DNA of 64,000 bases, from positions 1-64,000 of the IMG/VR virus record IMGVR_UViG_3300031758_000036. One strand, written 5' to 3'. Positions 10,270 through 62,006 of this stretch are shown piece after piece. This DNA is from a virus. The position numbers were made by a program, and so were the translations under genes. The notes below the pieces were generated by a model. It was not told the origin of the DNA and did no database searches. It saw nothing but the letters and a program-made list of their open reading frames with translations. Each line of letters begins with the position of its first letter. Within the stretch, counting starts at the first letter, position 1.

Positions 10270-10419
10270 TCACGATCTCTCGCCTGGATCTACTATATTT
10301 ATCTCACACAGAATGCGGTCCTCAAACATAGAATCGCAGAGGTCCGTAGCCTCATCAGCCGAAGCATACGGACCATATACGTTGCCGTCCTCATCAGTAA
10401 CAACGTAGAACTGCGTCAT
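10270..10419 (-). CDS. Small acidic protein (49 aa, not in ORF track)
   Basis: MTQFYVVTDEDGNVYGPYASADEA...PGERS*; starts next to the previous stop and its TGA lies inside the repeat at 10240-10279. Confidence 0.65.
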   Translation of the reverse strand: MTQFYVVTDEDGNVYGPYASADEATDLCDSMFEDRILCEINIVDPGERS

Positions 10420-10761
10420 TTATCCATATACAATTTCCTTAAAACAAGCTACTTGGATAATAGCATCAGCAGCATATCCGTCAATATACCCATAATCATT
10501 TTCCTTAATTGCTGCCATTATATCGGCGCGAATATTATCAGAAATTTCAACTCTATTTTCAGTAATAAGTGCAATAGCACGCTCGGCATCTGACTTACAG
10601 ACTGTATGAATTTCAGCCCCCTCTTCACAAGAAAGGGAATAGATCTCGCTGACAGCATCATACTCTGCCTCGTCAACCCAGTAACCGATAGCATAGCCGG
10701 CGGTGTCGAAGATGTCAGCGAAGTCGTCGCTTGTTAGGTTGAAATTAATTGTAATTTGCAT
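10420..10761 (-). CDS. Hypothetical acidic phage protein
   Basis: IGYW...ID..AADAIIQVACFKEIVYG; GGAGG RBS. Confidence 0.75.
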   Translation of the reverse strand: MQITINFNLTSDDFADIFDTAGYAIGYWVDEAEYDAVSEIYSLSCEEGAEIHTVCKSDAERAIALITENRVEISDNIRADIMAAIKENDYGYIDGYAADAIIQVACFKEIVYG

Positions 10762-10764
10762 GGC

Positions 10765-10950
10765 TCAAACCTCCATCAGATCGGCGTAACCGGCATCCAG
10801 AGCATCCTCAAGCTCGGTTACTAGGCCATCAAAGTCTTCACTGGCTGGCAGAACTGTAATCAGAACGTCTACCAAACCACCGTATTCCTCGCGCAAACTA
10901 TTCAGGTAGTCTGCGCGATCGATGAAGCCGTTGTCGGTGTAAACAGTCAT
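10765..10950 (-). CDS. Small acidic hypothetical protein
   Basis: MTVYTDNGFIDRADYL...EDFDGLVTELED; promoter TTGCCA-N17-TATCAT. Confidence 0.7.
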   Translation of the reverse strand: MTVYTDNGFIDRADYLNSLREEYGGLVDVLITVLPASEDFDGLVTELEDALDAGYADLMEV

Positions 10951-11062
10951 GGGTGAACCCGGTTGACTCCCTAATGATAGCACTGCTGGCAAATGTTGGC
11001 AAGCCTGGCTCCGGCGCGTTGCGAATTGTGACCGTGAGCAGCAACCGTAGGGCCGCTCACGG

Positions 11063-11350
11063 TCACGCGTCTTCTGGCTTCAGTTCAGTGATCTGGCCGT
11101 CAACCTTGATGCGGAACACGCGGCGAGCATCGAAACTGCGCCATTGACCCAACTTGATATCCATGATCTTGAAGTTGTTAAGCTTCGTGACAGGATCCTT
11201 AATCGGGTGGCCAGTGCCCAGTACTTGACCCTTGTGCAGCGGATTGAACGTCAGTTGACGCTCGCTGCCATCGGCCTTGATGAAATTGACAGAAACCAAG
11301 TGGGAGCCGGCTTCTGAAATTTTTGCGCGGATAACTTCGTGGTTAGACAT
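11063..11350 (-). CDS. WYL-like / SH3 beta-barrel phage protein
   Basis: VSVNFIKADGSERQL...MDIKLGQWRSF; stop codon supplied by the repeat arm. Confidence 0.75.
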   Translation of the reverse strand: MSNHEVIRAKISEAGSHLVSVNFIKADGSERQLTFNPLHKGQVLGTGHPIKDPVTKLNNFKIMDIKLGQWRSFDARRVFRIKVDGQITELKPEDA

Positions 11351-11480
11351 GGGTGGTTCCCTGTTCTGGAAAAATCCTAGCACAGATCGGGCCGGGTGCG
11401 GACGCGAGCTGATCGTGAGCAATGACCGTAGGGCCGCTCACGCTCACGGTGTGTTATCATTCAATCAGGAGGGAAGACCC

Positions 11481-11639
11481 ATGTCAGTCACTGAATCTTT
11501 CGAACGCTTCCTTGCTCTGGAGGAACAATCCCTGGAGCGCATCGAGACCCTGCTGGCCAGCATCCGTGAGGATATTGCCTGGCTGGAAGCCCTGGATGCC
11601 GATGAACAGGCGCTGGAGGTGACATGTAACGAGGTGTGA
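11481..11639 (+). CDS. Small acidic coiled-coil protein (inverted cassette)
   Basis: AGGAGG RBS, extended -10 TGnTATCAT, TGA inside the left arm of repeat 11636-11674. Confidence 0.75.
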   Translation: MSVTESFERFLALEEQSLERIETLLASIREDIAWLEALDADEQALEVTCNEV

Positions 11640-11678
11640 CCGTGATCAATGACCGTAGGGCCGCTCACGCTCACCATT

Positions 11679-11885
11679 TCACCTAACGGAAAAATCCAAT
11701 GAACGCCACCGAATTGAACGCCAAAGCTCAAGAATTGCTGGACGCGATCTGGGGACCGATCTCGGAATTTCAAGCCATGCGTAACGACTCTGGCCCCGTT
11801 TCCTGGGATGCAGCCAGTGAGGCCCGTAACTGGCTTGATAAGCTTTGTGAAATCGAGTACGTGCTAGAGTCTTGATCGTGAACAA
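11679..11885 (-). CDS. Possible small basic protein
   Basis: ORF fills the space between two repeats, but the start lies in a repeat and there is no clear RBS. Confidence 0.35.
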   Translation of the reverse strand: MFTIKTLARTRFHKAYQASYGPHWLHPRKRGQSRYAWLEIPRSVPRSRPAILELWRSIRWRSLDFSVR

Positions 11886-11906
11886 TGACCGGAGGGCCGC
11901 TCACGC

Positions 11907-12179
11907 TCACTCGTAATCGCGTCGCCGCGTGCTATCCCATTCAGCCTGCTCGCAACGGGCAGTGTGCCACAGGTCGCGTAAATCGTAGGCGAACAGATTT
12001 AGAATTTCGTAGGTGACGCATTGCAGCCCCTCTTGGATGCATTCGCTGTCAACGTCATCTAGGACACTAAACACCCAGGCTGCATCAATCTCAGTGAGAT
12101 CGCTGGGAATGTCAAAGTCGGACAGGTCGTCTAGATGGGCCCACAGGGGGCTGAGATCGACTGCAGTGGCTGTGGTCAT
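11907..12179 (-). CDS. Acidic hypothetical early protein
   Basis: GGAG RBS, TTGCGC-N17-TATGCT promoter, stop in the repeat arm. Confidence 0.75.
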   Translation of the reverse strand: MTTATAVDLSPLWAHLDDLSDFDIPSDLTEIDAAWVFSVLDDVDSECIQEGLQCVTYEILNLFAYDLRDLWHTARCEQAEWDSTRRRDYE

Positions 12180-12277
12180 TGGATTGGCTCCATTGGATGT
12201 GACTAGCATAGCCTGTTTGGCGGCCAGGCGCAAGTGCTGTAACTGATCGTGATCAATGACCGTAGGGCCGTTCACGC

Positions 12278-12517
12278 TCATGCCTTGGAGCGTAGCACCG
12301 GCTGGCTGTAGGTGTCAACAACCAGCTCCAACCACTGCCGCGCAACGGTTCCGGCTTTGCAGATGTCGCGAGCCAGGAGCACGGTCTCACGTGAGACCGT
12401 ATCGGCAGTGCCGCTGATGAGAGCCCAGGCATCGGCCCAGGTGGTAGGGGTGGCCTGCAGGACCTCATAAGCCTGCAGGATTTCAGCCTTGGTGGAGCGG
12501 GAAGTGATCTGAGCCAT
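12278..12517 (-). CDS. Hypothetical early protein
   Basis: MAQITSRSTKAEILQAY; stop in the repeat arm. Confidence 0.75.
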   Translation of the reverse strand: MAQITSRSTKAEILQAYEVLQATPTTWADAWALISGTADTVSRETVLLARDICKAGTVARQWLELVVDTYSQPVLRSKA

Positions 12518-12583
12518 GATGGGTAGTCCCTGTTGGATGGTGAGCGTGATCAATGACCGTAGGGCCGTTCGCGATCACAATTC

Positions 12584-12627
12584 GGAAAATTCCTGGGGAA
12601 AATTCCTGGGGAAATTCCTGGGAATTT
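12584..12627. repeat. Short tandem repeat of about 12-13 bp, three copies
   Basis: (GGAAAATTCCTGG)-type units. Confidence 0.8.
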
Positions 12628-12899
12628 CAGTAGCGGATTTCTCCGGGCAGAACGGGACGCAAGTTCAGCGGCTCACGGGCGGATTCATAGCAGTCCAACT
12701 CGGTCTTCAATTGCCTGGCTTTCTCCCGCATCAGCGCGACATCGGCAAGCGGTGCGCGGTTCACTAGAACCTCCCCTTCAAACAGGGTATCATTCAGTAA
12801 TCCGACCTTGGCGATAGCATCCTCGATTGCCAGCCAGGCTTCGTCAAAGGCCTGACTGTAGGCGGCGGTGGCGTGAGCGGGGCAGAGTGTGGCTGTCAT
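12627..12899 (-). CDS. Hypothetical early protein
   Basis: GGGAG RBS, TTGACA-N16-TAGACT promoter. Confidence 0.7.
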   Translation of the reverse strand: MTATLCPAHATAAYSQAFDEAWLAIEDAIAKVGLLNDTLFEGEVLVNRAPLADVALMREKARQLKTELDCYESAREPLNLRPVLPGEIRY

Positions 12900-12990
12900 G
12901 GTGGGTTCTCCCGGTAACTTGGTCAGTCTACAGGATGGTGGGCAGATGTCAACGGGTGAGCGTGATCAATGACCGCAGGGCCGTTCGCGA

Positions 12991-13404
12991 TCACGCTGCG
13001 AGCCGCTCTGCCTGCTGCAGGAACCAGTTATCGGCATCTAAGCGCATCGGCCACTCCTCAGAGCCCTCCCAAGGCGCCGTGGTGGTATGCCACTCCTAAT
13101 CAGTCTGGGAGATGCCCTCACCCGGCACGAAGGCCCGTAGCAGGGCGTTCAGGCGGCTCTTAGTGGTGGATGTGCGGTACCCGCAATCAAACAGGGAGAT
13201 CCTCATGATGCCGGGTTCGACAAGTCCGATCCGATGGCCGTGCAGCAGGATCTCAACGTGCCGATGGTGGCTGAGGGTGCCACCGATGCCGTGGTGTTTA
13301 ACGGTGACTTCGGTGTTGCCGCACTTGAGCAGTCGGCCGGCCTTGTGGGAGTCGCTCAGGGCGGAACGGATGGCTTGGATCATCCGGGCTTCAGTCTTGC
13401 GCAT
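12991..13404 (-). pseudogene. Phage early protein interrupted by an in-frame TAG at 13096-13098
   Basis: MRKTE...LHGHRI...TTKSRLNALL...ISQTD*EWHTT...RLAA*; frame stays open for 34 more sense codons to a TGA in the repeat arm; promoter TTGACA-N18-TAGTCT. Confidence 0.6.
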
Positions 13405-13748
13405 GGGGGTGTTCCCTCTGGGGTTAACAGGAGACTAGCGTGGATTGAATCGAGGTGTCAACAGGATGGCGATCGTGAGCATTGACCGTAGGGCCGTTCG
13501 CGATCACGGTTTGCCCCTGAAGGCGAAAATTTGGACCTCGCTGGTTCGGCGCTCCGGAACGGCATGATCGTGAAGTCCCTGAATTACTAAATCCGGCCAG
13601 ATCGCCGCCCTGAGCTGCAATGTGAGCGTGAAAACAATCGACCGCAGGGCCGTTCGCGATCACGGTTCCTGATTAGCTGGTGAGCGGTGCTTGCAGGATG
13701 AGCGTGAACAGCCCCTGTCACCCGCCCACCCGCCCCACGATCACAATT

Positions 13749-13806
13749 CGTAACATAAGGATTACTGATGTTACAATTCCGCAACATAAGAGTTGCTGAT
13801 GTTACA
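13749..13806. promoter_or_regulatory. Two palindromic operator-like sites, 31 bp apart
   Basis: ATAAGGATTACTGAT at 13755 and ATAAGAGTTGCTGAT at 13786, each followed by GTTACA. Confidence 0.6.
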
Positions 13807-13862
13807 GTGCTGTCGCGGATTGTGACATAACGGTAGCGTTATGGTGCTATGGCGTTTGCATT

Positions 13863-13887
13863 AAAAAGGCCCTGAGATTTCAGGGCC
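13863..13887 (-). terminator. Rho-independent terminator
   Basis: GGCCCTGA stem-loop followed by a T-run on the minus strand. Confidence 0.7.
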
Positions 13888-13897
13888 ATTCTTGTCG

Positions 13898-14236
13898 TTA
13901 ATTCTCGCTGATTAGGTACCGGCAAAAATATAGAGAATCCTCGGGGATCTCGTTATTTTCTGGGACGTTCTCGATTGAACACCACTTGGTGCCGTCTGAT
14001 TCCTCACTCCTCCAGGTGGAAGGGGCGAAGTCAATGCAGGCAAGATCCTCTCGGATCAGTTGCATCAATTCAGTCCGATTGACGCACCAATGAAGCCAGG
14101 CCTCGATATTCCGTCCGCTTGGTGATACCTCGGCACGAATGTACCAGTCGGTATCGATCGAGCAGTAGCTGAGGGCGTTCTCCAACATCTTGCCGTCAAT
14201 CAGTGTCGCCTTGGCGGTGGTCGGTGCTGCGATCAT
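13898..14236 (-). CDS. Hypothetical early protein
   Basis: 112-aa ORF, leader GGAATCATCCAA-ATG. Confidence 0.7.
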   Translation of the reverse strand: MIAAPTTAKATLIDGKMLENALSYCSIDTDWYIRAEVSPSGRNIEAWLHWCVNRTELMQLIREDLACIDFAPSTWRSEESDGTKWCSIENVPENNEIPEDSLYFCRYLISEN

Positions 14237-14290
14237 TTGGATGATTCCAGAAAGTAAGAAAGGGGGGGACCCTTAAGGGTCCCCTGTTGC

Positions 14291-14581
14291 TCACTGCCAG
14301 TCGCGCCAGGCTTCGTGATTCATTTGCCAGAGCAGGTCGCCGATGGCGCCTGTCTTCAGGAAGTCGAACCACTGGGTTTTGCAGGCGTATTCTGCGCGGC
14401 CCATCAGGCCGGGCAGGTCGCTGAGGTCAGCCAGCAGCAGCGGCGGCAGTCCGGCATCGTAGCCGGCTACAACAGCATCCTGCCGGAGGTCCAGGGCAGC
14501 CCAGAGCAGGGCGACAAGGGCGGAGCGACCGTCATCACGGGCGGCCTTGAAGGCGTACCGGACGGTGTTAGCGATGGTCAT
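14291..14581 (-). CDS. Hypothetical early protein
   Basis: 96-aa ORF, leader GGAATCATCCTTC-ATG, hairpin downstream at about 14265-14284. Confidence 0.7.
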   Translation of the reverse strand: MTIANTVRYAFKAARDDGRSALVALLWAALDLRQDAVVAGYDAGLPPLLLADLSDLPGLMGRAEYACKTQWFDFLKTGAIGDLLWQMNHEAWRDWQ

Positions 14582-14719
14582 GAAGGATGATTCCGTTGTT
14601 AAGGTGCGTGCGATCGGTTTCCCTCTCGCATGCCTGTATCCTAGCGCCCGTGCCCGCCGATCGGGGCCATTGTGAAGGATTGCAACAATGATCTTTCCTT
14701 ATCAGTCGCTGCGCGACAG

Positions 14720-14813
14720 ATCAGCAACCCTGATCGATCAGCACCGCTGATGTCACAAGCGTGTAACATCAGCATCGCTTATGTTACAAATCCGACACAT
14801 TAGCATTGCTGAT
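14720..14813. promoter_or_regulatory. Array of palindromic operator-like sites ATYAGC-N3-SCTKAT
   Basis: Copies at 14720, 14737, 14768 and 14799; the last three are spaced exactly 31 bp apart. Confidence 0.65.
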
Positions 14814-15065
14814 GTGTGATCGTGGGGGTTATGGCGTACGGGTGTGGCGCCACGATCACGATGCGGTGCTGCGCTCCTGCCTGAGCCTGTCACTGGGCCT
14901 CCAGCAAGAGCTGGCGGCGACTAAATTCCACCGAGTTGCCGGCGGATTCGCCAGGTACCCCCACCCCGATTTTCGGATTCTCTCCTCTAGGTTATCCCCC
15001 CGCAAAATTTTTCAAAAAATTTGAATTGGGACACTAAGCAATAAACCAGTCTTACAGCGGTACAG

Positions 15066-15248
15066 ATGATTCATCCAGAGTTACCGGAGGGAATCAAGGG
15101 TATTTTAGAGGAGTTACAGCATTCCAGTATCAGTTTAGTATGGTGTAAGGGGTGTGGGTGTAACAGACCAGTGAACAGTAAGTATGTGGAATACCTTGGT
15201 GATGGTATTGAGGGGTGTCGATTTTGCCAATCGGAGTATTATAAATAG
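15066..15248 (+). CDS. Small zinc-binding protein
   Basis: CKGC...CRFC motifs. Confidence 0.6.
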   Translation: MIHPELPEGIKGILEELQHSSISLVWCKGCGCNRPVNSKYVEYLGDGIEGCRFCQSEYYK

Positions 15249-15295
15249 TGTATCAGTGGATGTGGGAAGTATAATGTATTGCGCACAGGGATGAA

Positions 15296-15805
15296 GTGAG
15301 TAATTCTCCATTATTACCATATTATAATGGATTAATATTAAGTCGTAGTGGGCAGACGGTCAGTGTTGTGGATGGCAGGATAGAAGCGGATACCAGCAGT
15401 GGGAGTAAATATTTAGTAAAGGTATTTGTATCACAAGGTGCTGAGATTGTCAATATACCAAAGGAAGTAGAATTAGGGCAGGAGATACCTGGAGCGAGTG
15501 GATATGCGTACAGTTATAAGGGATATGCGCTGAGTGTTTCAGTTGTAAGCAGTGGATTTGAGTTAGATGCCAGTATTGGATTACAGGGTAATGTAAGTGG
15601 ATTAACGTTTAGCGATATTACGGGTCATCCGGGGTATCTCAAGAATGGGGTCAGGGGAGACATTTTACTGGGTTTAGATAAGGTGAATCATTATCAGATT
15701 ATAAATACTGGTGGAGTATATAATGGTGTTGGAATTGACGAGTTAATATATAATGAAATAAGTGGAGTACCGATCAGGCTGAGTGTTGGCGGGGTGTATA
15801 TATAA
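15296..15805 (+). CDS. Putative head-closure/neck protein
   Basis: Beta-rich 169 aa at the start of the late cluster; function inferred from position. Confidence 0.45.
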   Translation: MSNSPLLPYYNGLILSRSGQTVSVVDGRIEADTSSGSKYLVKVFVSQGAEIVNIPKEVELGQEIPGASGYAYSYKGYALSVSVVSSGFELDASIGLQGNVSGLTFSDITGHPGYLKNGVRGDILLGLDKVNHYQIINTGGVYNGVGIDELIYNEISGVPIRLSVGGVYI

Positions 15806-16299
15806 TGGGTGTTAAAATAAGTGGTGGTGGTTATAAGGCACCAAAATTAAAGTCATATCGTACCAGTGTAGATTTAAGTATTGATTTAGATATTAAGATA
15901 AAGATGCCATCTGATGGTGCATCGATTATAACGGATAAGATTGATGAGGCAACGAATTTAGCGTTAAATATCATATCATCAGAGATTGGTGGATATTTAA
16001 ATGATGCGATATCATCAAGTATATGGGGTGGTAGTGATCCAGATATTGTTGATAGCGGTAAATTACGTAATTCGTTAACGGTTACCAGGAGTGGATCCAG
16101 TATTATTATCAGTTATGACGAACCGTATGCGAAGTTAATACATTATGGTGGATATATTGTACCATATGGTAATGAGAGTGCTGCCAGGAAGTACATTGAA
16201 GGTAAGCCATGGGTGGAATCAATTATATTTGGCAATGGTCCGATTGCTGGATATGATTACCAGGAGGCATACAACAGGGCGATAGCAGCAATTCGATAG
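15805..16299 (+). CDS. Tail completion protein (HK97 gp10-like)
   Basis: IVDSGKLRNSL...YDEPYAKLIHYGG...KPW. Confidence 0.75.
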   Translation: MGVKISGGGYKAPKLKSYRTSVDLSIDLDIKIKMPSDGASIITDKIDEATNLALNIISSEIGGYLNDAISSSIWGGSDPDIVDSGKLRNSLTVTRSGSSIIISYDEPYAKLIHYGGYIVPYGNESAARKYIEGKPWVESIIFGNGPIAGYDYQEAYNRAIAAIR

Positions 16300-16355
16300 A
16301 GTGGTTATAAAAATGGTAAACTGACGAGTGATTGTTTTCAGTTTGGATTCAAGAT

Positions 16356-16928
16356 ATGGGTAAGTTACCGTTTGTTGTTGCTCCTCGGTTGCAGCCAATT
16401 ATTGAACGTATTGGTACGCAGGAGTCGGGTATTATTGAAATTGAACGAAGGGGATATTTAACGAGTGGTGAGAAAAATTTTGTGCAACAAATTGTCCAAC
16501 AAGATAGGGGTACATTAAAATTAATTGATTTAGCGCGTAAGGTATCGCGAGATAAGGGTTATGATTTACAGCGAGCATATGAATTAATTGTATCAGCGAT
16601 TACTGGTACTGATAAGACGGAAGAAGCGGAGGTTATTGAAAGCGAATATTCGGAGAACATCCAGGAGGCAATCAAGGAGATCACGATTTCCAAATCGAGG
16701 GAGGACTTAGTAATGGCGGCATGTTTAATTACGAATCGGATTGATTCTGAATTTGACATAAATGACATTATGCAAATCCATCCTGATATTGTTAGCGAAT
16801 TAGCGCAACTATATCGAGATGAGGAGATGAAATCAATTGAACGTTTACAAGAGTCAGGAGATGAGCAAAAGGAGGAGCCAAAGATTGAGCAAATCGAAAA
16901 AAAGCGCAGGGCTCCGAAGGGGATCTAA
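16356..16928 (+). CDS. Tail assembly chaperone (G)
   Basis: Ends just after the slippery heptamer A AAA AAG at 16898-16904. Confidence 0.7.
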   Translation: MGKLPFVVAPRLQPIIERIGTQESGIIEIERRGYLTSGEKNFVQQIVQQDRGTLKLIDLARKVSRDKGYDLQRAYELIVSAITGTDKTEEAEVIESEYSENIQEAIKEITISKSREDLVMAACLITNRIDSEFDINDIMQIHPDIVSELAQLYRDEEMKSIERLQESGDEQKEEPKIEQIEKKRRAPKGI

Positions 16929-17536
16929 TACCGTTTGATGATTATTACTGGTTACTGAAGAGAGAATTTCCTGGAGATAGGGAGTTCTCTATTGATAATT
17001 ATTGGTTATTACCGTATGAGTACATTATAGGAGCGGTAATAGCAAGTAGTGAGTTAAGGATGCAAAGATTGCATGAATATGAAAGGCCGATATCGATGTT
17101 AGCGGCGCAACAAGCAGAGATGAATAGGGACAAGAAAAGACGTAGAAAGCCATATGACTTAACTGATTTTTATATTTATATAAACGAAAGTCAAAATGAC
17201 TTACCTGATGGCGTTTATGGAGCATGTGCCGGTCGGTTAATTGCATTAAGCAAATATCCAAGTTGGGCGTTATTCTGTTATAATGATTTAAAGGTAAATG
17301 CGAAGGATTATACGGCACCTGAGGATAAGAATGTTGCGTTACTGTCAAGTGATGCTATTATTTTAGCGCCAAGGATACAGGATGATGTGTGCACTGGGAT
17401 GTTAATTGCATTACGAAGTGCATCGAATCAAATTGTAGAGTTTACTGACCTGCAGGGTGATACCATCAGGTTACTGATGCCTGAATTAAAGGGACAAGCA
17501 GTTGCGGATGAAGATGTGGAGCTCAGAATTGTCTAG
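16904..17536 (+). CDS. Tail assembly chaperone -1 frameshift extension (T part of GT)
   Basis: The -1 frame is open from the slippery site (AQGSEGDLIPFDDYYW...) through ORF 17060..17536. Confidence 0.75.
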   Translation, partial: AQGSEGDLIPFDDYYWLLKREFPGDREFSIDNYWLLPYEYIIGAVIASSELRMQRLHEYERPISMLAAQQAEMNRDKKRRRKPYDLTDFYIYINESQNDLPDGVYGACAGRLIALSKYPSWALFCYNDLKVNAKDYTAPEDKNVALLSSDAIILAPRIQDDVCTGMLIALRSASNQIVEFTDLQGDTIRLLMPELKGQAVADEDVELRIV

Positions 17537-17542
17537 CAAACA

Positions 17543-17965
17543 TTAAGCAACACTTAAATCTGTATCATTTGATACAGTTTTTGTTTTTATTAATGATTGA
17601 TGATCATTGTTCAGCCATTGTTTGATGCGCCATTCAGCATTTGCATCATAAAAAGACTGTTCTCGATACCATTCAACCCAATCGCGAGATGCTTTTGAGT
17701 GATTGCATGATACACATGCTGGTGTTACGTTATTTGTACGATCTGTTCCGCCTTTTGACTTTGGCCTGATGTGATCAATCGTTAAGCTAAGGTCATCAAT
17801 TGGAGGCTTACCGCAGTAAGCGCAACAATAATTCCATGCTTGTTTAACCGATTCTCGCCATTGCCTACGTGCTTCTTTGCGTGTCAAGGCGGACATATTG
17901 GATAAATAATCAGAAGAATGCTCGTACAAGGGGTAAATATCCCCAGCGGTCCATGGACCTAGCAT
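17543..17965 (-). CDS. HNH endonuclease
   Basis: CAYCG...LTIDHIRPKSKGG...NVTPACVSCNHSK. Confidence 0.9.
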   Translation of the reverse strand: MLGPWTAGDIYPLYEHSSDYLSNMSALTRKEARRQWRESVKQAWNYCCAYCGKPPIDDLSLTIDHIRPKSKGGTDRTNNVTPACVSCNHSKASRDWVEWYREQSFYDANAEWRIKQWLNNDHQSLIKTKTVSNDTDLSVA

Positions 17966-33541: not shown

Positions 33542-33602
33542 GACTAGTGGCAATGATGAATAAATATTGGTATCATGTGGATGCGTCACTGCCATCAGCC
33601 AG

Positions 33603-34151
33603 ATGAGACCCCTTCCCGCATTGCCTCACATTAGTGTATTAAATGAATATCTTGAGATTGATCCAGCCATACCCGCTGGATTAAGGTGGAAGACGAGGGC
33701 TTCAAAAAATACACGCATCGGATCACCAGCGGGCAGAAAGCATTCCAATGGCTACTGGGAAGTTAGGCTCCAGGGTGTGCTGTACAAAAGCTCAAGGATA
33801 ATATATAAAATTTATAACAATGGAGAAGATCCTGGCCTGTTCGAGATAGATCACATTGACAGGAACAAGGACAATAATGCTGGATGGAATCTTGTGCTTG
33901 CAACAAGAGCAGAACAGGCTCGAAATAAGACGGTTACGTCCAAGGCTGGTTTCAGGCATGTGGCTTTTGATGCTCGCACTCGCAGGTCTTCTGCTCCATG
34001 GATGAGTACAGTCTCATTTAGGGTTGATGGCGTCAGGAAAGCCAAATTCCTAGGCTATTTCTTAAATCCATACGAAGCGGCAATTGCAGCTATCGTTTAT
34101 AAACGTGAAAATGGTATCAGGTATGAATATGCTCCTGGAGGAGCGGTCTAG
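33603..34151 (+). CDS. Free-standing HNH homing endonuclease with an AP2-like C-terminus
   Basis: AG..NGYW...RIIY...EIDHIDRNKDNN..NL...Q..N; GFRHV...W...KFLGYF....EAA. Confidence 0.85.
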   Translation: MRPLPALPHISVLNEYLEIDPAIPAGLRWKTRASKNTRIGSPAGRKHSNGYWEVRLQGVLYKSSRIIYKIYNNGEDPGLFEIDHIDRNKDNNAGWNLVLATRAEQARNKTVTSKAGFRHVAFDARTRRSSAPWMSTVSFRVDGVRKAKFLGYFLNPYEAAIAAIVYKRENGIRYEYAPGGAV

Positions 34152-53221: not shown

Positions 53222-53947
53222 ATGCCCGATTCAATCCCTAATCTCGCCGGCATTGCAACCAAAGATCTGGTTGAAACTATTGGCGGCGGTAGTTTTAAGG
53301 CTAGTTACATCAACTGGGCTCGGACCTTTAACCTGCTGCATGAGCATGCACCCGGTTGGTGCCTTGAGATCATGACTGCGCCCGATGGAGGCCAGGTCTT
53401 TCGTGCTCCTGGTAACGGCGGTTACCTGATGCTGCGCTTCGTTCATTTGGACGGGACTGTGCTACCAGAAGTCCCCCAAGCAATCATGGACACCCGTAAC
53501 CAGCCGATTGCTTTCGATAAGATCAGCGCCCGTGATGTGACAGACACTCATCGTCGCGGTGGCTGCATGGCGGCTGCTATGACATTTGGCTTGGCACATG
53601 AGCTGTGGGCCAAGATGCCACTGGAGAGCGGCTACGCGGGCCAGGAGGCTGCTGGGGTAGCAGTGGCGCCACCGGCCTCCACAGGCGCCTCCAAGGCCCC
53701 TCTGCAGGTTGATCCGCAGCCAACCATGGAAGACTTCCTGGAGGCCTGTCTGGGGAAAGGATTGACCACTCTGGCTGCTGACAAATTGATTAATGTGATC
53801 GGTGACAATTATGCAGGCGCGTTGAAGACACTTGCCAGCAAAACGCCTGAATGGATTGCTGAGCAAAACGCTCAAGCCGAACCCGCCCCAAAGCCCGCGA
53901 AGACCACAGCGAAGAAGTCGACGAAACCGGACCCGAGCGACTATTAA
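53222..53947 (+). CDS. Sak/Rad52-like single-strand annealing protein (DUF1071-like)
   Basis: SYINWA, AIMDTRNQPI, ARDVTDTHRR..AAAMTFGLAHELW. Confidence 0.75.
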   Translation: MPDSIPNLAGIATKDLVETIGGGSFKASYINWARTFNLLHEHAPGWCLEIMTAPDGGQVFRAPGNGGYLMLRFVHLDGTVLPEVPQAIMDTRNQPIAFDKISARDVTDTHRRGGCMAAAMTFGLAHELWAKMPLESGYAGQEAAGVAVAPPASTGASKAPLQVDPQPTMEDFLEACLGKGLTTLAADKLINVIGDNYAGALKTLASKTPEWIAEQNAQAEPAPKPAKTTAKKSTKPDPSDY

Positions 53948-57937: not shown

Positions 57938-58615
57938 ATGCACGATGCAAAATTAGTTGCTCTTACTCAAGGAGCGGAAGAGCACGCCTTGAAACATGCT
58001 CAAGAAATCATTATGTACGTTGCCCGTGTTAGCAATCCTTCTAATCAGGATAGCAGTAATACTGGGCTGCTGAAATATTGTATCAGGGAAAAGCATTGGT
58101 CAATTTTTGAAATGGCTAATATGGTCCTGGAAATCAACACAACCAGGGCGATTAGTCCACAAATTTTGCGTCATCGTTCTTTTTCGTTTCAGGAATTTTC
58201 GCAACGCTATGCCACTATTGACAGTTTAAGCGCCTCAATTCCATTACCAGATTTGCGGCGACAGGATACCAAAAATCGCCAAGCAAGTCATGATGACCTT
58301 GACGAGGATCTGAAGCGTGATCTTCAAGCTAATATTGATAACCTTTACGAGCACGCAAATGATGTATATCAACTACTGCTTCAGAAGGATGTAGCAAAAG
58401 AGTGCGCGAGGGAAGTCCTGCCGATTGGTTCGCCAACAAGGCTATATATGAATGGCACCCTCAGGAGCTGGATTACATATATTGCGCTCCGAGAAAAAAA
58501 TGGAACACAACTTGAGCATCAAATGATTGCAAAGTCTTGCAAACAAATATTTTGCAAGCATCATCCGATTATTGGCAATGCCCTCGGTGGTGTCGATACG
58601 CCGTGGGAAATCTAA
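57938..58615 (+). CDS. thyX: Flavin-dependent thymidylate synthase
   Basis: ARVSNP, HWSIFE, RHRSFSFQEFSQRY, ECAR.VLP, GTLRSW. Confidence 0.95.
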   Translation: MHDAKLVALTQGAEEHALKHAQEIIMYVARVSNPSNQDSSNTGLLKYCIREKHWSIFEMANMVLEINTTRAISPQILRHRSFSFQEFSQRYATIDSLSASIPLPDLRRQDTKNRQASHDDLDEDLKRDLQANIDNLYEHANDVYQLLLQKDVAKECAREVLPIGSPTRLYMNGTLRSWITYIALREKNGTQLEHQMIAKSCKQIFCKHHPIIGNALGGVDTPWEI

Positions 58616-58631
58616 GTATCAGGGATTGATC

Positions 58632-59270
58632 ATGTCAGAATCTTTGGATCAATCAGGCTGGCCTGAGTCTAAACCAATAAAAGGAGAGGCTGGTCCAATT
58701 TATGGTTTTAGGCGCGGTTATCGTGTCAGCCAGTCCGGTCGACACGAAAACGCCGATCAATACGGTTGCTTCCAGAAGTTCTTATTGCTACAGGGAGGCA
58801 GGACTTTTAAGGCTCTTGAATCGATAACGGGACATGCTGTACCTACCCTATCTAGCTGGTCTGATATATTCAACTGGCAGCGCCGTGCAGCCGCCTATGA
58901 TAAAGATCAATTGGCGATCGTCTGGAAGGAAGCAGAGAAATTCCAAAAAAACTCCCATCGAGACGCAATTGTAGAATTTAGGGAGTCATCTGAGCGTCAA
59001 GCCAGGATGATGGCCAGAGTTTCGGAAGACTTGCTGCGTGTTCTGGGTAAGCGCATAGCAAAGGCCGAGGACGAGGGAGAAGAGGTGCCAATGGCCCTAG
59101 TCTCTGGCCTGCTTAAGGCCGCCGCTAGTATTAGCGAGCAGTCTCGTCAATCCTGGGCCAACTCGCTGGGCATTAATGAAATGCTAGAAATGGTTGATGA
59201 AGAGATGAACAAAGTAAACATTGAAGATGTCACTGATGTCGACGCCTACGAAATTCCAATCGATGAATAA
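58632..59270 (+). CDS. Putative terminase small subunit
   Basis: HTH-like segment then W..RAAAYD and a helical C-terminus; just upstream of the large subunit. Confidence 0.6.
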   Translation: MSESLDQSGWPESKPIKGEAGPIYGFRRGYRVSQSGRHENADQYGCFQKFLLLQGGRTFKALESITGHAVPTLSSWSDIFNWQRRAAAYDKDQLAIVWKEAEKFQKNSHRDAIVEFRESSERQARMMARVSEDLLRVLGKRIAKAEDEGEEVPMALVSGLLKAAASISEQSRQSWANSLGINEMLEMVDEEMNKVNIEDVTDVDAYEIPIDE

Positions 59271-59472
59271 ATTTCCTGATCCAAATTTCCCTCTAATCGT
59301 AACAGAAGAGGAGGATGGCTCGTTTACACTGGAGTGGGATGACCTTCATCCTATTACATCTGTTTTCAATAACTATACGGAGCAAGACTTTATCGACATG
59401 CTGACCGCTGGAGCAATCGATACCCTACAGGACAATGAAGAATTAGATGCATCAAAACAGGTTGAAGACTGA
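59263..59472 (+). CDS. Small acidic hypothetical protein
   Basis: VTEEEDGSFTLEWD; coupled to the terminase gene. Confidence 0.6.
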   Translation: MNKFPDPNFPLIVTEEEDGSFTLEWDDLHPITSVFNNYTEQDFIDMLTAGAIDTLQDNEELDASKQVED

Positions 59473-62006
59473 TGGCTACTAGAGCTGGTAAAATCTTTCT
59501 TGAAAAAGCAGGATCAGACCGCGAAATGGTTCGCGAGCTGCGAAAAGCTAAGACGCAAAGGAAAGAAGGTGGCCAGCAAATAGTACTGCATCAGTTTATC
59601 AAATCGGTATCTCCTAACTATAAATTTTACAAGGTCCACGCAGAATTAACGAAACAACTGCAGCGAATCATTGACGGAAAATGCAAGCGGTTAATTATTC
59701 AAATTCCACCAAGGACTGGTAAAAGTTTTCTGTCCTCTAAGTTATTTCCAGCAGCATATTTACTGGCCCATCCAGATCGATATGCTGGCATCGTCTCCTA
59801 TAGCGCAGAGCTGGCTGAAGGCTTCTCGCGGTCTGCCAGAGATTACTACAGGCAGGCTGGAGGGACATTTGACCCATACAAGCAAGCCGTAAACGATTGG
59901 GGTACCCAAGGCGGTGGCGGGTTATGGGCGTCGGGTGTTGGAGGCGCTATCACCGGCCGCTCAGGCCATTTGCTGATCATTGACGACCCTGTCAAGAACA
60001 GGGAAGACGCTGACAGCCCAAGGGTGATGGAAAAACTATGGGACTGGTACACATCGACTCTTTACACTCGCCTTGAACCAGAAGTCGGATCAATTGTTGT
60101 GATTCAATGCATGACCGGTGATACAAATGTAACCATGAGCGATGGTTCTTGCCGCAGGCTGGATACAATTAGGCCAGGCGATGAAGTCTTGTCATGGAAG
60201 AATGGATCTGCTGTTACTAGAACTGTACTGAATCATAAATGTCAGGGAGAGGACGATGTATTTGAGATAAGAACCGCGAGTAGTAGGGTGAAGGCGAATG
60301 CGAGGCATCCGTTTTTAGTGCAACGCGAAGATGGGGCCCATGAATGGGTCAGGGTTGAGGATTTACGGATTGGCGATTCCCTGGTGGCGTCATCCCGCCT
60401 TGAATTTGACAATCCCGCGCAAGTAACCGAGCAACAGGCTTGGCTTCTTGGTTATATGTTTGGAGATGGCTGGATAACCAGTCGAACCGGTACGCGGCTA
60501 GATGCCAATGGTAAAAGGTATCCAAGATCAGGATTCGTAACATGTGTTGCATGTCCCAAACCAGACGAGGAAAGGGAAAAGATTATGACAGCGTTTCAAT
60601 CGATATGGGGTTTTAGGCCGAAACTGACTCGTTATGGCTACTACAGGACCGAGAGGCAGGAGCCAGGGAAATGGTTCACTGCTTTTGGGCTTACTGGAAC
60701 AGCCAAGACCAAGAGGGTGCCATTGTGGATGTACTCTCAGCCTGCTGAGATTCGCCAAGCCTTTTTATCTGGATATCACGAAGCGGATGGCGCTACATTT
60801 AGTACGGGCAAGGCCGCAGGTAGGTATACGTTTGGCTCATGTAACCCAGATCTGATCAACGATATTAGACAAATAGCAAGGGGATTGGGATATTCAGTCA
60901 CGAATATTAGCGTATATGAAAGCATGATACAAGCTCCCAACAGTCCTGCGCCAGTATTATCTAAAAATTGCAATTTACAATTCAACCCATGGTCAAAAAA
61001 CGAATCAGAATTTCGTACTCATAAAATCAGATCAATTAAAAATATTGGGAGGGAATTAGTATATGACATTCAAGTCGAGGACACCGAATGTTTCATAGCA
61101 GATGGACTAGTGTCTCACAATACTCGCTGGAGCGAAAATGACCTGATTGGCAGGCTGATTGAGTCTGAAATGAACGTATCCGAAAAAGGCAGAGAAAATT
61201 GGACAATACTTGACCTGCCTGCTATATCCGAGGATGCTGGTTCGCGACCGCCACTGCCAGAGCATTGCGATGTTGTACCTGATTGGCGAGAAGAGTCTGG
61301 GCTAGCACTGTGCCCACAGCGATATGGTATAGAAGAATACGAACGCATACGTGAAGCGATAGGCACCAGGGATTTTGCTGCTTTGTATCAGCAGCGACCA
61401 GCACCTGAGGGCGGCAATATGTTTGACCCTAGTTGGTGGCAATACTATGATCACGGCACTGAGCTGCCGGAGTTCCAAAGGTTAATGCTTAGCGTTGACT
61501 GTACTTTTACTAACTCTAGTTCTAGTGACTATGTTGTTGGTAGCGTAGTAGCCCAAGCCGGCAATCGATTTTATGTAATCGATATGGTCAGGGAGAAAAT
61601 GGATATCATTGCAACGATATCAATGATATCAAGAATGTATAACAAACATGCACTTAGCGGCACGATTATTGAACTTGCAGCGTCTGGTTATGCTGCTTAT
61701 CAAATGCTAAGCAAAAAAGTGCCAGGTTTAATTGGTTTCAAGCCAGAGAAATCAAAAACAGCTCGCGCTGCTGGTATCGTCCCAATAATCGAAGCAGGTA
61801 ATGTGTATTTACCAACAAGCGCACCTTGGCTAGATGCCTTTGTGAATGAATTCAGCCTATTCCCAGCAGCAAAGAACGATGACATCGTCGACTCTGTTGG
61901 CATGGCTATTAATTACATGTCTCAAAGATCGGCTCCCGTGATGACAGAAGTTAGCTGGGGCCGTGGAACAACTTTACCCTATAATTATAATAACAGTGTA
62001 ATCTAA
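59472..62006 (+). CDS. terL: Terminase large subunit containing an intein
   Basis: IPPRTGKS (Walker A), LIIDDPVK (Walker B), ALYQQRP, SVDCTF, NDDIVDS. Confidence 0.95.
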   Translation: MATRAGKIFLEKAGSDREMVRELRKAKTQRKEGGQQIVLHQFIKSVSPNYKFYKVHAELTKQLQRIIDGKCKRLIIQIPPRTGKSFLSSKLFPAAYLLAHPDRYAGIVSYSAELAEGFSRSARDYYRQAGGTFDPYKQAVNDWGTQGGGGLWASGVGGAITGRSGHLLIIDDPVKNREDADSPRVMEKLWDWYTSTLYTRLEPEVGSIVVIQCMTGDTNVTMSDGSCRRLDTIRPGDEVLSWKNGSAVTRTVLNHKCQGEDDVFEIRTASSRVKANARHPFLVQREDGAHEWVRVEDLRIGDSLVASSRLEFDNPAQVTEQQAWLLGYMFGDGWITSRTGTRLDANGKRYPRSGFVTCVACPKPDEEREKIMTAFQSIWGFRPKLTRYGYYRTERQEPGKWFTAFGLTGTAKTKRVPLWMYSQPAEIRQAFLSGYHEADGATFSTGKAAGRYTFGSCNPDLINDIRQIARGLGYSVTNISVYESMIQAPNSPAPVLSKNCNLQFNPWSKNESEFRTHKIRSIKNIGRELVYDIQVEDTECFIADGLVSHNTRWSENDLIGRLIESEMNVSEKGRENWTILDLPAISEDAGSRPPLPEHCDVVPDWREESGLALCPQRYGIEEYERIREAIGTRDFAALYQQRPAPEGGNMFDPSWWQYYDHGTELPEFQRLMLSVDCTFTNSSSSDYVVGSVVAQAGNRFYVIDMVREKMDIIATISMISRMYNKHALSGTIIELAASGYAAYQMLSKKVPGLIGFKPEKSKTARAAGIVPIIEAGNVYLPTSAPWLDAFVNEFSLFPAAKNDDIVDSVGMAINYMSQRSAPVMTEVSWGRGTTLPYNYNNSVI
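60108..61121 (+). mobile_element. Intein with a LAGLIDADG homing endonuclease (338 aa)
   Basis: IQ|CMTGDT start, block B ANARHPF, LLGYMFGDG and FLSGYHEADG, end VYDIQV..FIADGLVSHN|TRW. Confidence 0.95.

Follow-up and report, generated by a model that had tools for sequence, protein, structure and literature searches.

How is a single accessory gene cassette regulated, or moved, within a phage genome? Accessory cassette arrays are the phages' store of their fastest-evolving host-interaction genes, and the regulation and movement of single cassettes are poorly understood beyond the T4-type phages. The question is raised by a locus at 13698-14859 of a 64,000-nucleotide stretch of viral DNA (the window, positions 1 to 64,000 of IMG/VR record IMGVR_UViG_3300031758_000036, whose 85,756 bp are classed as complete), in which two small genes, here called A and B, are bracketed at each end by a hairpin and a cluster of short palindromic sites. 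A preliminary description of the window likened this layout to a crossover site with accessory binding sites of the attI or res kind, to transposon-like ends, or to paired operators for DNA looping. We find that the palindromes are exclusive to this module within the genome, are phased at 31 bp, and are conserved together with gene A in a second phage, and we argue that they most likely dock a DNA-binding protein that controls or insulates the cassette. This freshwater cyanophage locus offers a concrete and testable case, with a 13-site motif in two genomes, an exact 31-bp period and one small protein family.

Palindromic sites at the two ends of the cassette

Six sites of the type ACATNAG-N5-CTNATGT start at 13753, 13784, 14718, 14735, 14766 and 14797 and are absent elsewhere in the 85.7-kb genome; their core is embedded in a 25-bp palindrome, GTAACATNAG-N5-CTNATGTTAC. 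At the left end lie L1 (13750-13774, a 25-bp palindrome with its core at 13753-13771) and, 31 bp away, L2 (13781-13805, core at 13784-13802), followed by a degenerate third left site at about 13822-13846 (CATAACG..CGTTATG, with a 6-nt spacer), 41 bp from L2. At the right end, R0 (14720-14734) is a short core, ATCAG-N5-CTGAT, R1 (14735-14753) carries two mismatches in its outer left half, R2 (14763-14787) has a perfect 25-bp palindrome frame with its core at 14766-14784, and R3 (14797-14815) adjoins the arm of the right hairpin. Start-to-start spacing is 31 bp in the left cluster and 17, 31 and 31 bp in the right cluster. The preliminary description, which counted from the inner core (13755 and 13786 on the left; 14720, 14737, 14768 and 14799 on the right), had the sites, the flanking repeats and the 31-bp phasing right. 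Thirty-one base pairs amount to about three turns of the DNA helix, and the spacing is exact in all seven adjacent pairs of full sites when this phage is pooled with the relative described below.

The confinement of the motif to this locus is borne out by several scans. Exact matches to ACATNAGNNNNNCTNATGT are found at 13753, 13784, 14766 and 14797, with none in any of 100 dinucleotide-preserving shuffles; with up to two mismatches there are six matches in the window (2.70 expected), namely the four exact ones, 14735 and a match at 53520 that is probably due to chance. The 25-mer form, with up to three mismatches, occurs only at 13750, 13781 and 14763 in the 85,756 bp, and its reversed control gives none. 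In a weight-matrix scan of the whole genome the six locus sites ranked at the top (scores 18.0-31.2, followed by 17.5 and 15.4, with maxima of 9.5-16.1 in five shuffles) and nothing else stood clearly above the shuffles; the matrix was trained on these same sites, and the scan is informative only on the absence of further ones.

The bases within the sites say something about how they might be read. At the fifth position of the 26 half-sites in the two phages, C occurs 16 times, A 7, T 3 and G never, and the two halves disagree at this position in 5 of the 13 sites. A stem of 7-10 bp can be drawn at every site, but the halves vary independently, and this fits recognition of half-sites in double-stranded DNA better than it fits a selected hairpin.

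Are the two ends mirror images, as had been proposed? The order of elements is mirrored, with the hairpin outside and the sites inside at both ends, and a perfect 12-nt inverted repeat (13733-13744 and 14816-14827) lies outside the sites. Judged from their sequence, however, the clusters at the two ends are in direct and not inverted orientation. The spacers of the 13 sites, read in the direction of the genes, resemble C-R-A-T-S; 10 of them have AT at positions 3-4 and none has it at positions 2-3, and this asymmetry is the same for upstream and downstream clusters; a direct alignment of 13750-13802 with 14763-14815 gives 79% identity, compared with 72-73% for the inverted pairs. The likeness between one end and the reverse complement of the other, which had been noted for a 27-mer and is real, arises simply because each site is palindromic. 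Similarly, every hairpin of the neighboring array is itself palindromic, so that any cassette is bounded by inverted half-hairpins, and the 12-nt inverted repeat is one instance of this.

Conservation in related phages

Among other viral contigs the two-site or 25-mer pattern was found in one alone, a contig from a related 62-kb phage that is classed as 77% complete, has two tandem homologues of gene A (A1 and A2) and lacks gene B. Its seven sites all fall within the first 1212 nt, grouped into three clusters that each keep a 31-bp spacing. The contig begins with a hairpin, two sites, a promoter region with TATGAT, A1, a terminator and three sites; a G-rich segment with a hairpin, an ATAAG-N5-CTTAT core, a TAGGAT block, A2, a terminator and at least two further sites follow before the contig ends. 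In all three A genes of the two phages a site cluster lies upstream of a conserved -10-like TAGGAT or TATGAT, and the A proteins are 45-63% identical between copies. The left cluster of the window aligns with the three-site cluster of the relative, and the left boundary hairpin is homologous to the G-rich segment and hairpin that come after those three sites. The clusters differ in that the window has 10 bp inserted between the first site and the second, which is why L2 and the degenerate third left site are 41 and not 31 bp apart; as 10 bp is one helical turn, the phase is kept. At the position of R0 the core reads ATCAG/CTGAT in the window and ATAAG/CTTAT in the A2 copy of the relative, both halves having changed.

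Other relatives carry the array without these sites. Two further viral contigs (L031 and L036) have the same hairpin array but other cassettes, bringing to three the related contigs that share the repeat and differ in cassette content. In one of the two further contigs the last hairpin is joined directly to the homologous intergenic region in front of the structural genes, with neither gene A nor sites; this contig is classed as 43% complete, and gene A could sit elsewhere in that phage. The absence of the module there fits a self-contained accessory unit.

Phased palindromes of a similar kind occur in eight unrelated viral contigs (within L054-L064) as intergenic arrays of CAT[A/T]AG-N5-CT[A/T]ATG with periods of 22-29 bp. 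In two of these contigs a gene for a 182-183-aa protein with a helix-turn-helix (HTH)-like stretch at its N terminus follows the array at a distance of about 250-600 nt; the two proteins are weakly alike (E 0.002), and neither has a homologue in the phage studied here. We found no protein family shared between the neighbors of the arrays in these contigs and this phage.

The genes of the cassette

Read along the minus strand, on which both genes lie, the cassette comprises the hairpin at 14859-14816, R3-R2-R1-R0, an upstream block, gene A, a terminator, gene B, a second terminator, the degenerate site, L2, L1 and the hairpin at 13744-13698. Gene A (14291-14581) encodes a 96-aa acidic protein (isoelectric point, pI, 4.83) that is predicted to be all-helical, and its 64.9% GC gives it the look of a gene imported from a GC-rich source. 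Gene B (13898-14236) encodes a 112-aa acidic protein (pI 4.36) with one known homologue, on a 5.5-kb contig, and is not part of the module of the relative; its AF2 model is poor (pLDDT 52.4). Behind gene A lies an intrinsic-terminator-like hairpin with a T-rich tail (14265-14284, minus strand), and behind gene B another with a T-run (13868-13887, minus strand); such canonical terminators behind each gene are a feature of the A/B cassette and not of the other cassettes of the array. The region upstream of gene A (14582-14715, minus strand) is conserved and contains the -10-like TAGGAT at 14643-14638, an assignment read by eye and not from a program, with a GCATGCGAG block downstream of it. Within this region, a block of about 40 nt at approximately 14666-14706 is nearly identical in the A2 copy of the relative (L004, 5870-5910), the proteins being only 63% identical, and holds two degenerate outer half-sites 11 bp apart.

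Seven close homologues of gene A were found, the nearest of them encoded on contigs of 32.5 kb and 5.8 kb, and a profile search returned 18 representative proteins of the family, none of which has a Pfam match above the curated cut-off; PHROG matches were confined to one 278-aa member and were weak, all to families without an assigned function. A profile search of PDB sequences with gene A gave only a chance-level calcium-uniporter match, look-ups in protein atlases gave nothing usable for A or B, two scans of viral contigs for sub-families of A and one for gene B returned no loci, neither cultured phages nor plasmids gave a tblastn match to A or to a distant relative, and a scan of metagenomes with the A alignment gave three weak partial loci, which we did not use. 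The short DNA repeats D7/D8 had raised the possibility of a gene A paralogue at 10765-11022, which was not confirmed (BLASTP E 0.24).

A possible role as operator clusters

What might such sites do? We put at about even the chance that a dimeric (or higher-order) sequence-specific protein binds the 19-25-bp palindromes as operators and acts by forming a loop or a roadblock. Taken together, half-sites that vary independently, a three-turn period, an insertion that keeps the phase and the restriction to one gene family are the signature of cooperative dimeric binding. In the layout of hairpin, sites, promoter, A, terminator (in this phage followed by B and its terminator), sites and hairpin, 31-bp phasing would place bound proteins on one face of the DNA and so favor cooperative binding, and the two clusters could keep the cassette under tight, separate control by looping out the intervening 0.5-1 kb. 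Alternatively, the clusters might be roadblocks to transcription that enters from neighboring cassettes of either orientation, while the cassette's own terminators would stop outgoing transcription. Binding by a protein, the identity of that protein and its looping or roadblock effect are what we infer from these features.

Which protein might be the binder? Co-inheritance with the sites makes the product of gene A a natural candidate, and we regard it as a possible, if rather doubtful, choice; acidic proteins can bind DNA, so that its acidity lowers the idea without removing it. If gene A was indeed imported, a host factor might have been brought in along with this GC-rich, host-like gene, which we think somewhat less probable, and another protein of the phage is on a par with the host factor. 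The strict 25-mer pattern, searched in that form only, has 6 matches in 185,579 species genomes, none of them cyanobacterial. The only HTH-like protein of the phage (genome 78701-79099) is conserved in the 62-kb relative with 75% identity.

Several observations weigh against the operator interpretation. Our searches identified no binding protein for the sites, although the preliminary suggestion of paired operators for looping fits the data and is the best explanation we have. The HTH-like protein scores below the Pfam cut-offs and has no site near its own gene. The gene A product has no recognizable DNA-binding family or fold match: gene A itself matches neither Pfam nor PHROG, its family is mostly acidic (pI about 4.6-5.0), and comparisons of its all-helical structure model (pLDDT 78.6, pTM 0.47) were uninformative (best Foldseek E 0.95; best VIA Z 5.8, over residues 1-51 only). 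A prediction of its homodimer scored 0.01 (mark 0.42), which is uninformative either way. The downstream clusters lie beyond terminators, with no promoter there for a simple operator, and a loop or roadblock role for them is for this reason pure inference. The separation of the clusters is variable (about 500, 650 and 1000 bp), and copies differ in how far the upstream cluster stands from the -10 hexamer. Finally, the sites are found in two genomes only, so that their conservation amounts to one independent comparison.

The hairpin array and the possible movement of cassettes

The A/B cassette stands at the end of a cassette array and next to the structural genes, where the preliminary description had placed it. 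The array is built on a 44-nt, partly palindromic repeat with nine canonical copies between 11023 and 13663 and none elsewhere in the genome; two degenerate copies bring the family to 11 members (11023-14859), which delimit small GC-rich genes (56.5% GC in the array, 46.9% in the genome). The degenerate members are the boundary hairpins of the A/B cassette. In the left one (13698-13744), whose 3' arm is CACGATCAC, a C-rich stretch, G-rich when read on the minus strand, takes the place of the canonical loop; the right one (14816-14859) reads GTGATCGTGG...CCACGATCAC, its first 12 nt being the reverse complement of 13733-13744. Both are predicted to fold (-24.0 kcal/mol for 14812-14863 on the plus strand and -18.2 kcal/mol for 13696-13748 on the minus strand), and their arms are common to the 44-nt family (repeat groups D1/D3/D5, I12 and I22-24). 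The divergent repeats of the preliminary description are thus real foldable elements, but they are generic hairpin boundaries of the array and not special to this unit. Among 18 copies drawn from four phages, 89.4% of the cells of the proposed stem hold a pair; with the partner slid as a control, the figure drops to 28-42%. Covariation among these copies does not exceed that of shuffles, and at stem position 5 the bases fail to pair in 14 of the 18.

The array genes lie mainly on the minus strand, with two cassettes on the plus strand (about 11277-11639 and 11699-11875). A promoter scan places sigma-70-like promoters directly after hairpins at 12952-12925 and 11002-10974, and further ones were read by eye. 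Most hairpins between 11404 and 13663 have arms of two types, GTGAGCG.. and GTGATCG.., a difference that accounts for the unpaired stem position 5, in one arrangement at 11404-12281 and the reverse at 12535-13663 with the loop orientation constant, which looks like arm swapping by recombination. On the minus strand at about 13712-13736, between the left sites and the hairpin arm, four G-tracts with 1-nt loops resemble a G-quadruplex, a feature partly kept in the relative.

Public metagenome assemblies give a view of the array within populations. In all three runs that contain the region, contigs end inside hairpins. One contig is exactly 13740-14820, with a depth of 29.8 compared with 17.8 and 12.5 for its neighbors, and in another run 12528-14855 has a depth of 40.2, with flanks at 22.1 and 20.7. 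Over runs X3 and X5, depth across 12528-14855 is about 1.3-2.4 times that of the flanking backbone, and that of the cassettes at 11288-12247 about a quarter. Such differences in depth indicate that different cassettes differ in abundance within one sample. Every 31-mer of 10400-15200 is single-copy in this genome, and the contig breaks therefore reflect either branching between co-occurring variants or hairpins shared with relatives. The breaks fit a modular cassette content and are no demonstration that this cassette moves.

Could the sites serve recombination at the ends of the cassette? A bridging protein might pair the flanking hairpins, after which the cassette would be excised, duplicated or moved by the homologous-recombination genes of the phage or by a site-specific recombinase of the host. 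The sites adjoin hairpins at both cassette ends in both phages, the A module is duplicated in tandem in the 62-kb relative, and the module is present in two relatives and missing at the same place in a third. The phage also encodes a Sak-type annealing protein, a PD-(D/E)XK nuclease, RusA and SSB, contigs break at hairpins in three of three runs with the 13740-14820 contig at a depth of its own, and the PeSL (promoter-early stem-loop) elements of T4-type phages are reported to recombine and to give mini-circles (PMC2839356). Nonetheless, we consider this reading doubtful. In four scans covering 23, 40, 79 and 11 proteins, open reading frame (ORF) translations from across the genome yielded no integrase, transposase, resolvase or ParB domain; the sites at the ends are direct and not inverted; breaks and depths are equally explained by co-occurring relatives that share hairpin sequences; and cassettes elsewhere in the array differ between relatives though they have no such sites. 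The contigs of the three runs, in which rare forms would be hidden, contain no joint, inversion or deletion, and a raw-read run had 0 reads here. With no alternative joint, direct sites, generic hairpins and neither integrase, resolvase nor transposase domains, the attI- or res-like crossover site and the transposon-like ends of that description are not upheld.

A more speculative version, to which we assign still less probability, is a self-mobilizing cassette that needs no recombinase, in which a small protein, perhaps the gene A product, bridges the palindromes and synapses the hairpins. The Sak-type annealase, the PD-(D/E)XK nuclease and RusA would then preferentially excise, duplicate or transfer the cassette, and if this were true, the locus would be a "selfish cassette" driven by accessory sites and riding a PeSL-like array. 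The adjacency of sites to hairpins in two phages, the tandem duplication and the presence/absence polymorphism permit such a view and do not show it. The identity of the binder would tell us whether cassettes carry their own insulating control or whether site clusters aid cassette movement, and would give the A family a first function.

The phage genome and other explanations of the sites

The phage reads as a lytic-looking cyanobacterial siphovirus. A 127-bp overlap joins the two ends of the 85,756-bp record. Virion and packaging proteins encoded in the window include a tail tube, a 1572-aa tape-measure protein, collagen-like tail fibers and the small and large terminases; in addition to the recombination proteins named above, the phage has a DnaB-like helicase and a primase. 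The replication genes lie at 49-64 kb, that is, 35-50 kb from the sites, and the terminase genes occupy 58527-62006. The gene for the large terminase (59472-62006) is interrupted by an intein, the region that separates its ATPase and nuclease parts matching Intein_splicing and Hint and, weakly, LAGLIDADG, and four HNH endonuclease genes are dispersed over the genome (window 17543-17965 and 33567-34151; genome 77504-78160 and 83864-84364). The sole nucleotide match among cultured phages is to the capsid gene of Synechococcus phage S-CRES3 (73.6%), one cassette gene matches the cyanomyovirus family Kyano_Gp96, and the sequencing runs that contain the stretch are labelled as lake water, freshwater and "fungus" metagenomes, with no RNA run listed among them. 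The locus coincides with a switch in transcription direction and in GC skew. Where the rightward structural operon begins (15001-17000), a low GC content of 39% goes with a very high GC skew of 0.33-0.44.

Two proteins of the sigma-70 family are encoded by the phage (window 54120-54920 and 62007-62636), and one might ask whether the sites are promoter elements, or else hairpins with a 10-bp stem and a 5-nt loop formed in RNA or single-stranded DNA. On its plus strand L1 contains GTAACA-N16-TACAAT with an upstream TG, listed by the promoter scan at 13750-13777 with 9 of 12 matches, and the 7-10-bp stem that all sites can form speaks for a hairpin. But most of the 13 sites have no -10-like hexamer and the relative does not conserve it, the fifth stem position is mismatched in 5 of the 13, and the sites lie upstream of the -10 or downstream of the terminators, so that they are probably not transcribed in the direction of the genes. 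A search of 10300-15400 for Rfam families at E ≤ 1 found none except two chance-level matches. We therefore think it improbable that the sites work as promoters or as hairpins.

Equally, phased repeats around a small gene recall the textbook layouts of replication-origin iterons and partition centromeres, and a pac site might also be considered. An AT-rich tract lies nearby (about 15000-15030), and the switch in transcription direction and GC skew at the locus would suit an origin. Yet the module is missing at the homologous position in the third relative and can thus not be essential to the backbone there, the adjacent genes include no initiator, ParB or ParA/ParM/TubZ-type NTPase, and the replication and terminase genes lie in distant parts of the window; we regard an origin, a centromere or a pac site as quite unlikely. 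Least probable of all is that the sites are a functionless remnant, short tandem repeats carried along as the A cassette duplicated and now in slow decay, as their occurrence in two genomes only and the degenerate R0, R1, third left site and first upstream site of the relative might suggest, since all five clusters retain the consensus of the half-sites and the exact 31-bp period in phages whose A proteins are only 45-63% identical, the half-sites stay constant while spacers and linkers vary, and the sole insertion or deletion keeps the helical phase.

Comparison with known systems

In our full-text literature searches we found no description of such an array or such sites in a cyanophage. How, then, does the locus compare with better-known arrangements? 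Several phased sites per end and a perfect 12-nt inverted repeat outside them are reminiscent of transposon ends or res sites, but neither a transposase nor a resolvase was found in genes A and B or in the scanned phage ORFs, the sites are direct, and the inverted repeat consists of halves of neighboring array hairpins and is common to every cassette. The iteron sets that flank the initiator gene of the P1 plasmid replicon are likewise repeated protein-binding sites on both sides of a small gene, a likeness that would suggest autoregulation and a second control cluster; gene A, in contrast, encodes 96 acidic residues without initiator-like features, the module is dispensable, and the replication genes are 35-50 kb away. 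With integrons the locus shares an array of small genes with imperfect hairpin repeats, a special end module and two cassettes in opposite orientation. It differs in that no IntI-type tyrosine recombinase is present in the scanned phage ORFs and in that several cassettes have promoter-like sequences of their own and not one common promoter; hairpin arms such as GTGANCGNGA are also not known to resemble the core sites of attC. The outer half-site, for its part, may bear some likeness to the arms of chromosome-dimer-resolution sites.

Closer to the reading of the sites as operator clusters are the lac, gal and deo systems and OL-OR of phage lambda, in which paired operator clusters act through cooperative binding and DNA looping. 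Here too the sites are palindromic, two clusters hundreds of base pairs apart flank a gene, and helical phase is kept within a cluster. Unlike those systems, the present one is as a whole an optional cassette, has one cluster beyond terminators and yielded no repressor; its 25-bp site is long and its 31-bp period unusual.

For the array as a whole the nearest likeness is to the PeSL elements of T4-type phages, in which a stem-loop and an early promoter precede the ORFans of hyperplastic regions (Arbiol et al. 2010, PMC2839356; Comeau et al. 2014, PMC4122927), and whose terminator activity and mini-circles have been demonstrated in those phages (PMC2839356). Common to both are a repeated stem-loop between small genes, mostly of no assigned function, in a variable region beside conserved virion genes, sigma-70-like promoters after several of the stem-loops, and cassette content that differs between relatives. 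The array described here belongs to a siphovirus-like cyanophage and not a T4-type myovirus, its repeat is a conserved sequence of 44 nt with an imperfect stem and no T-run, and one of its cassettes has extra phased palindromes inside, which the consulted parts of these sources (PMC2839356, PMC4122927) do not mention for PeSLs. The locus is best filed as an operator-bracketed, insulated accessory cassette within a PeSL-like hairpin array of a cyanophage.

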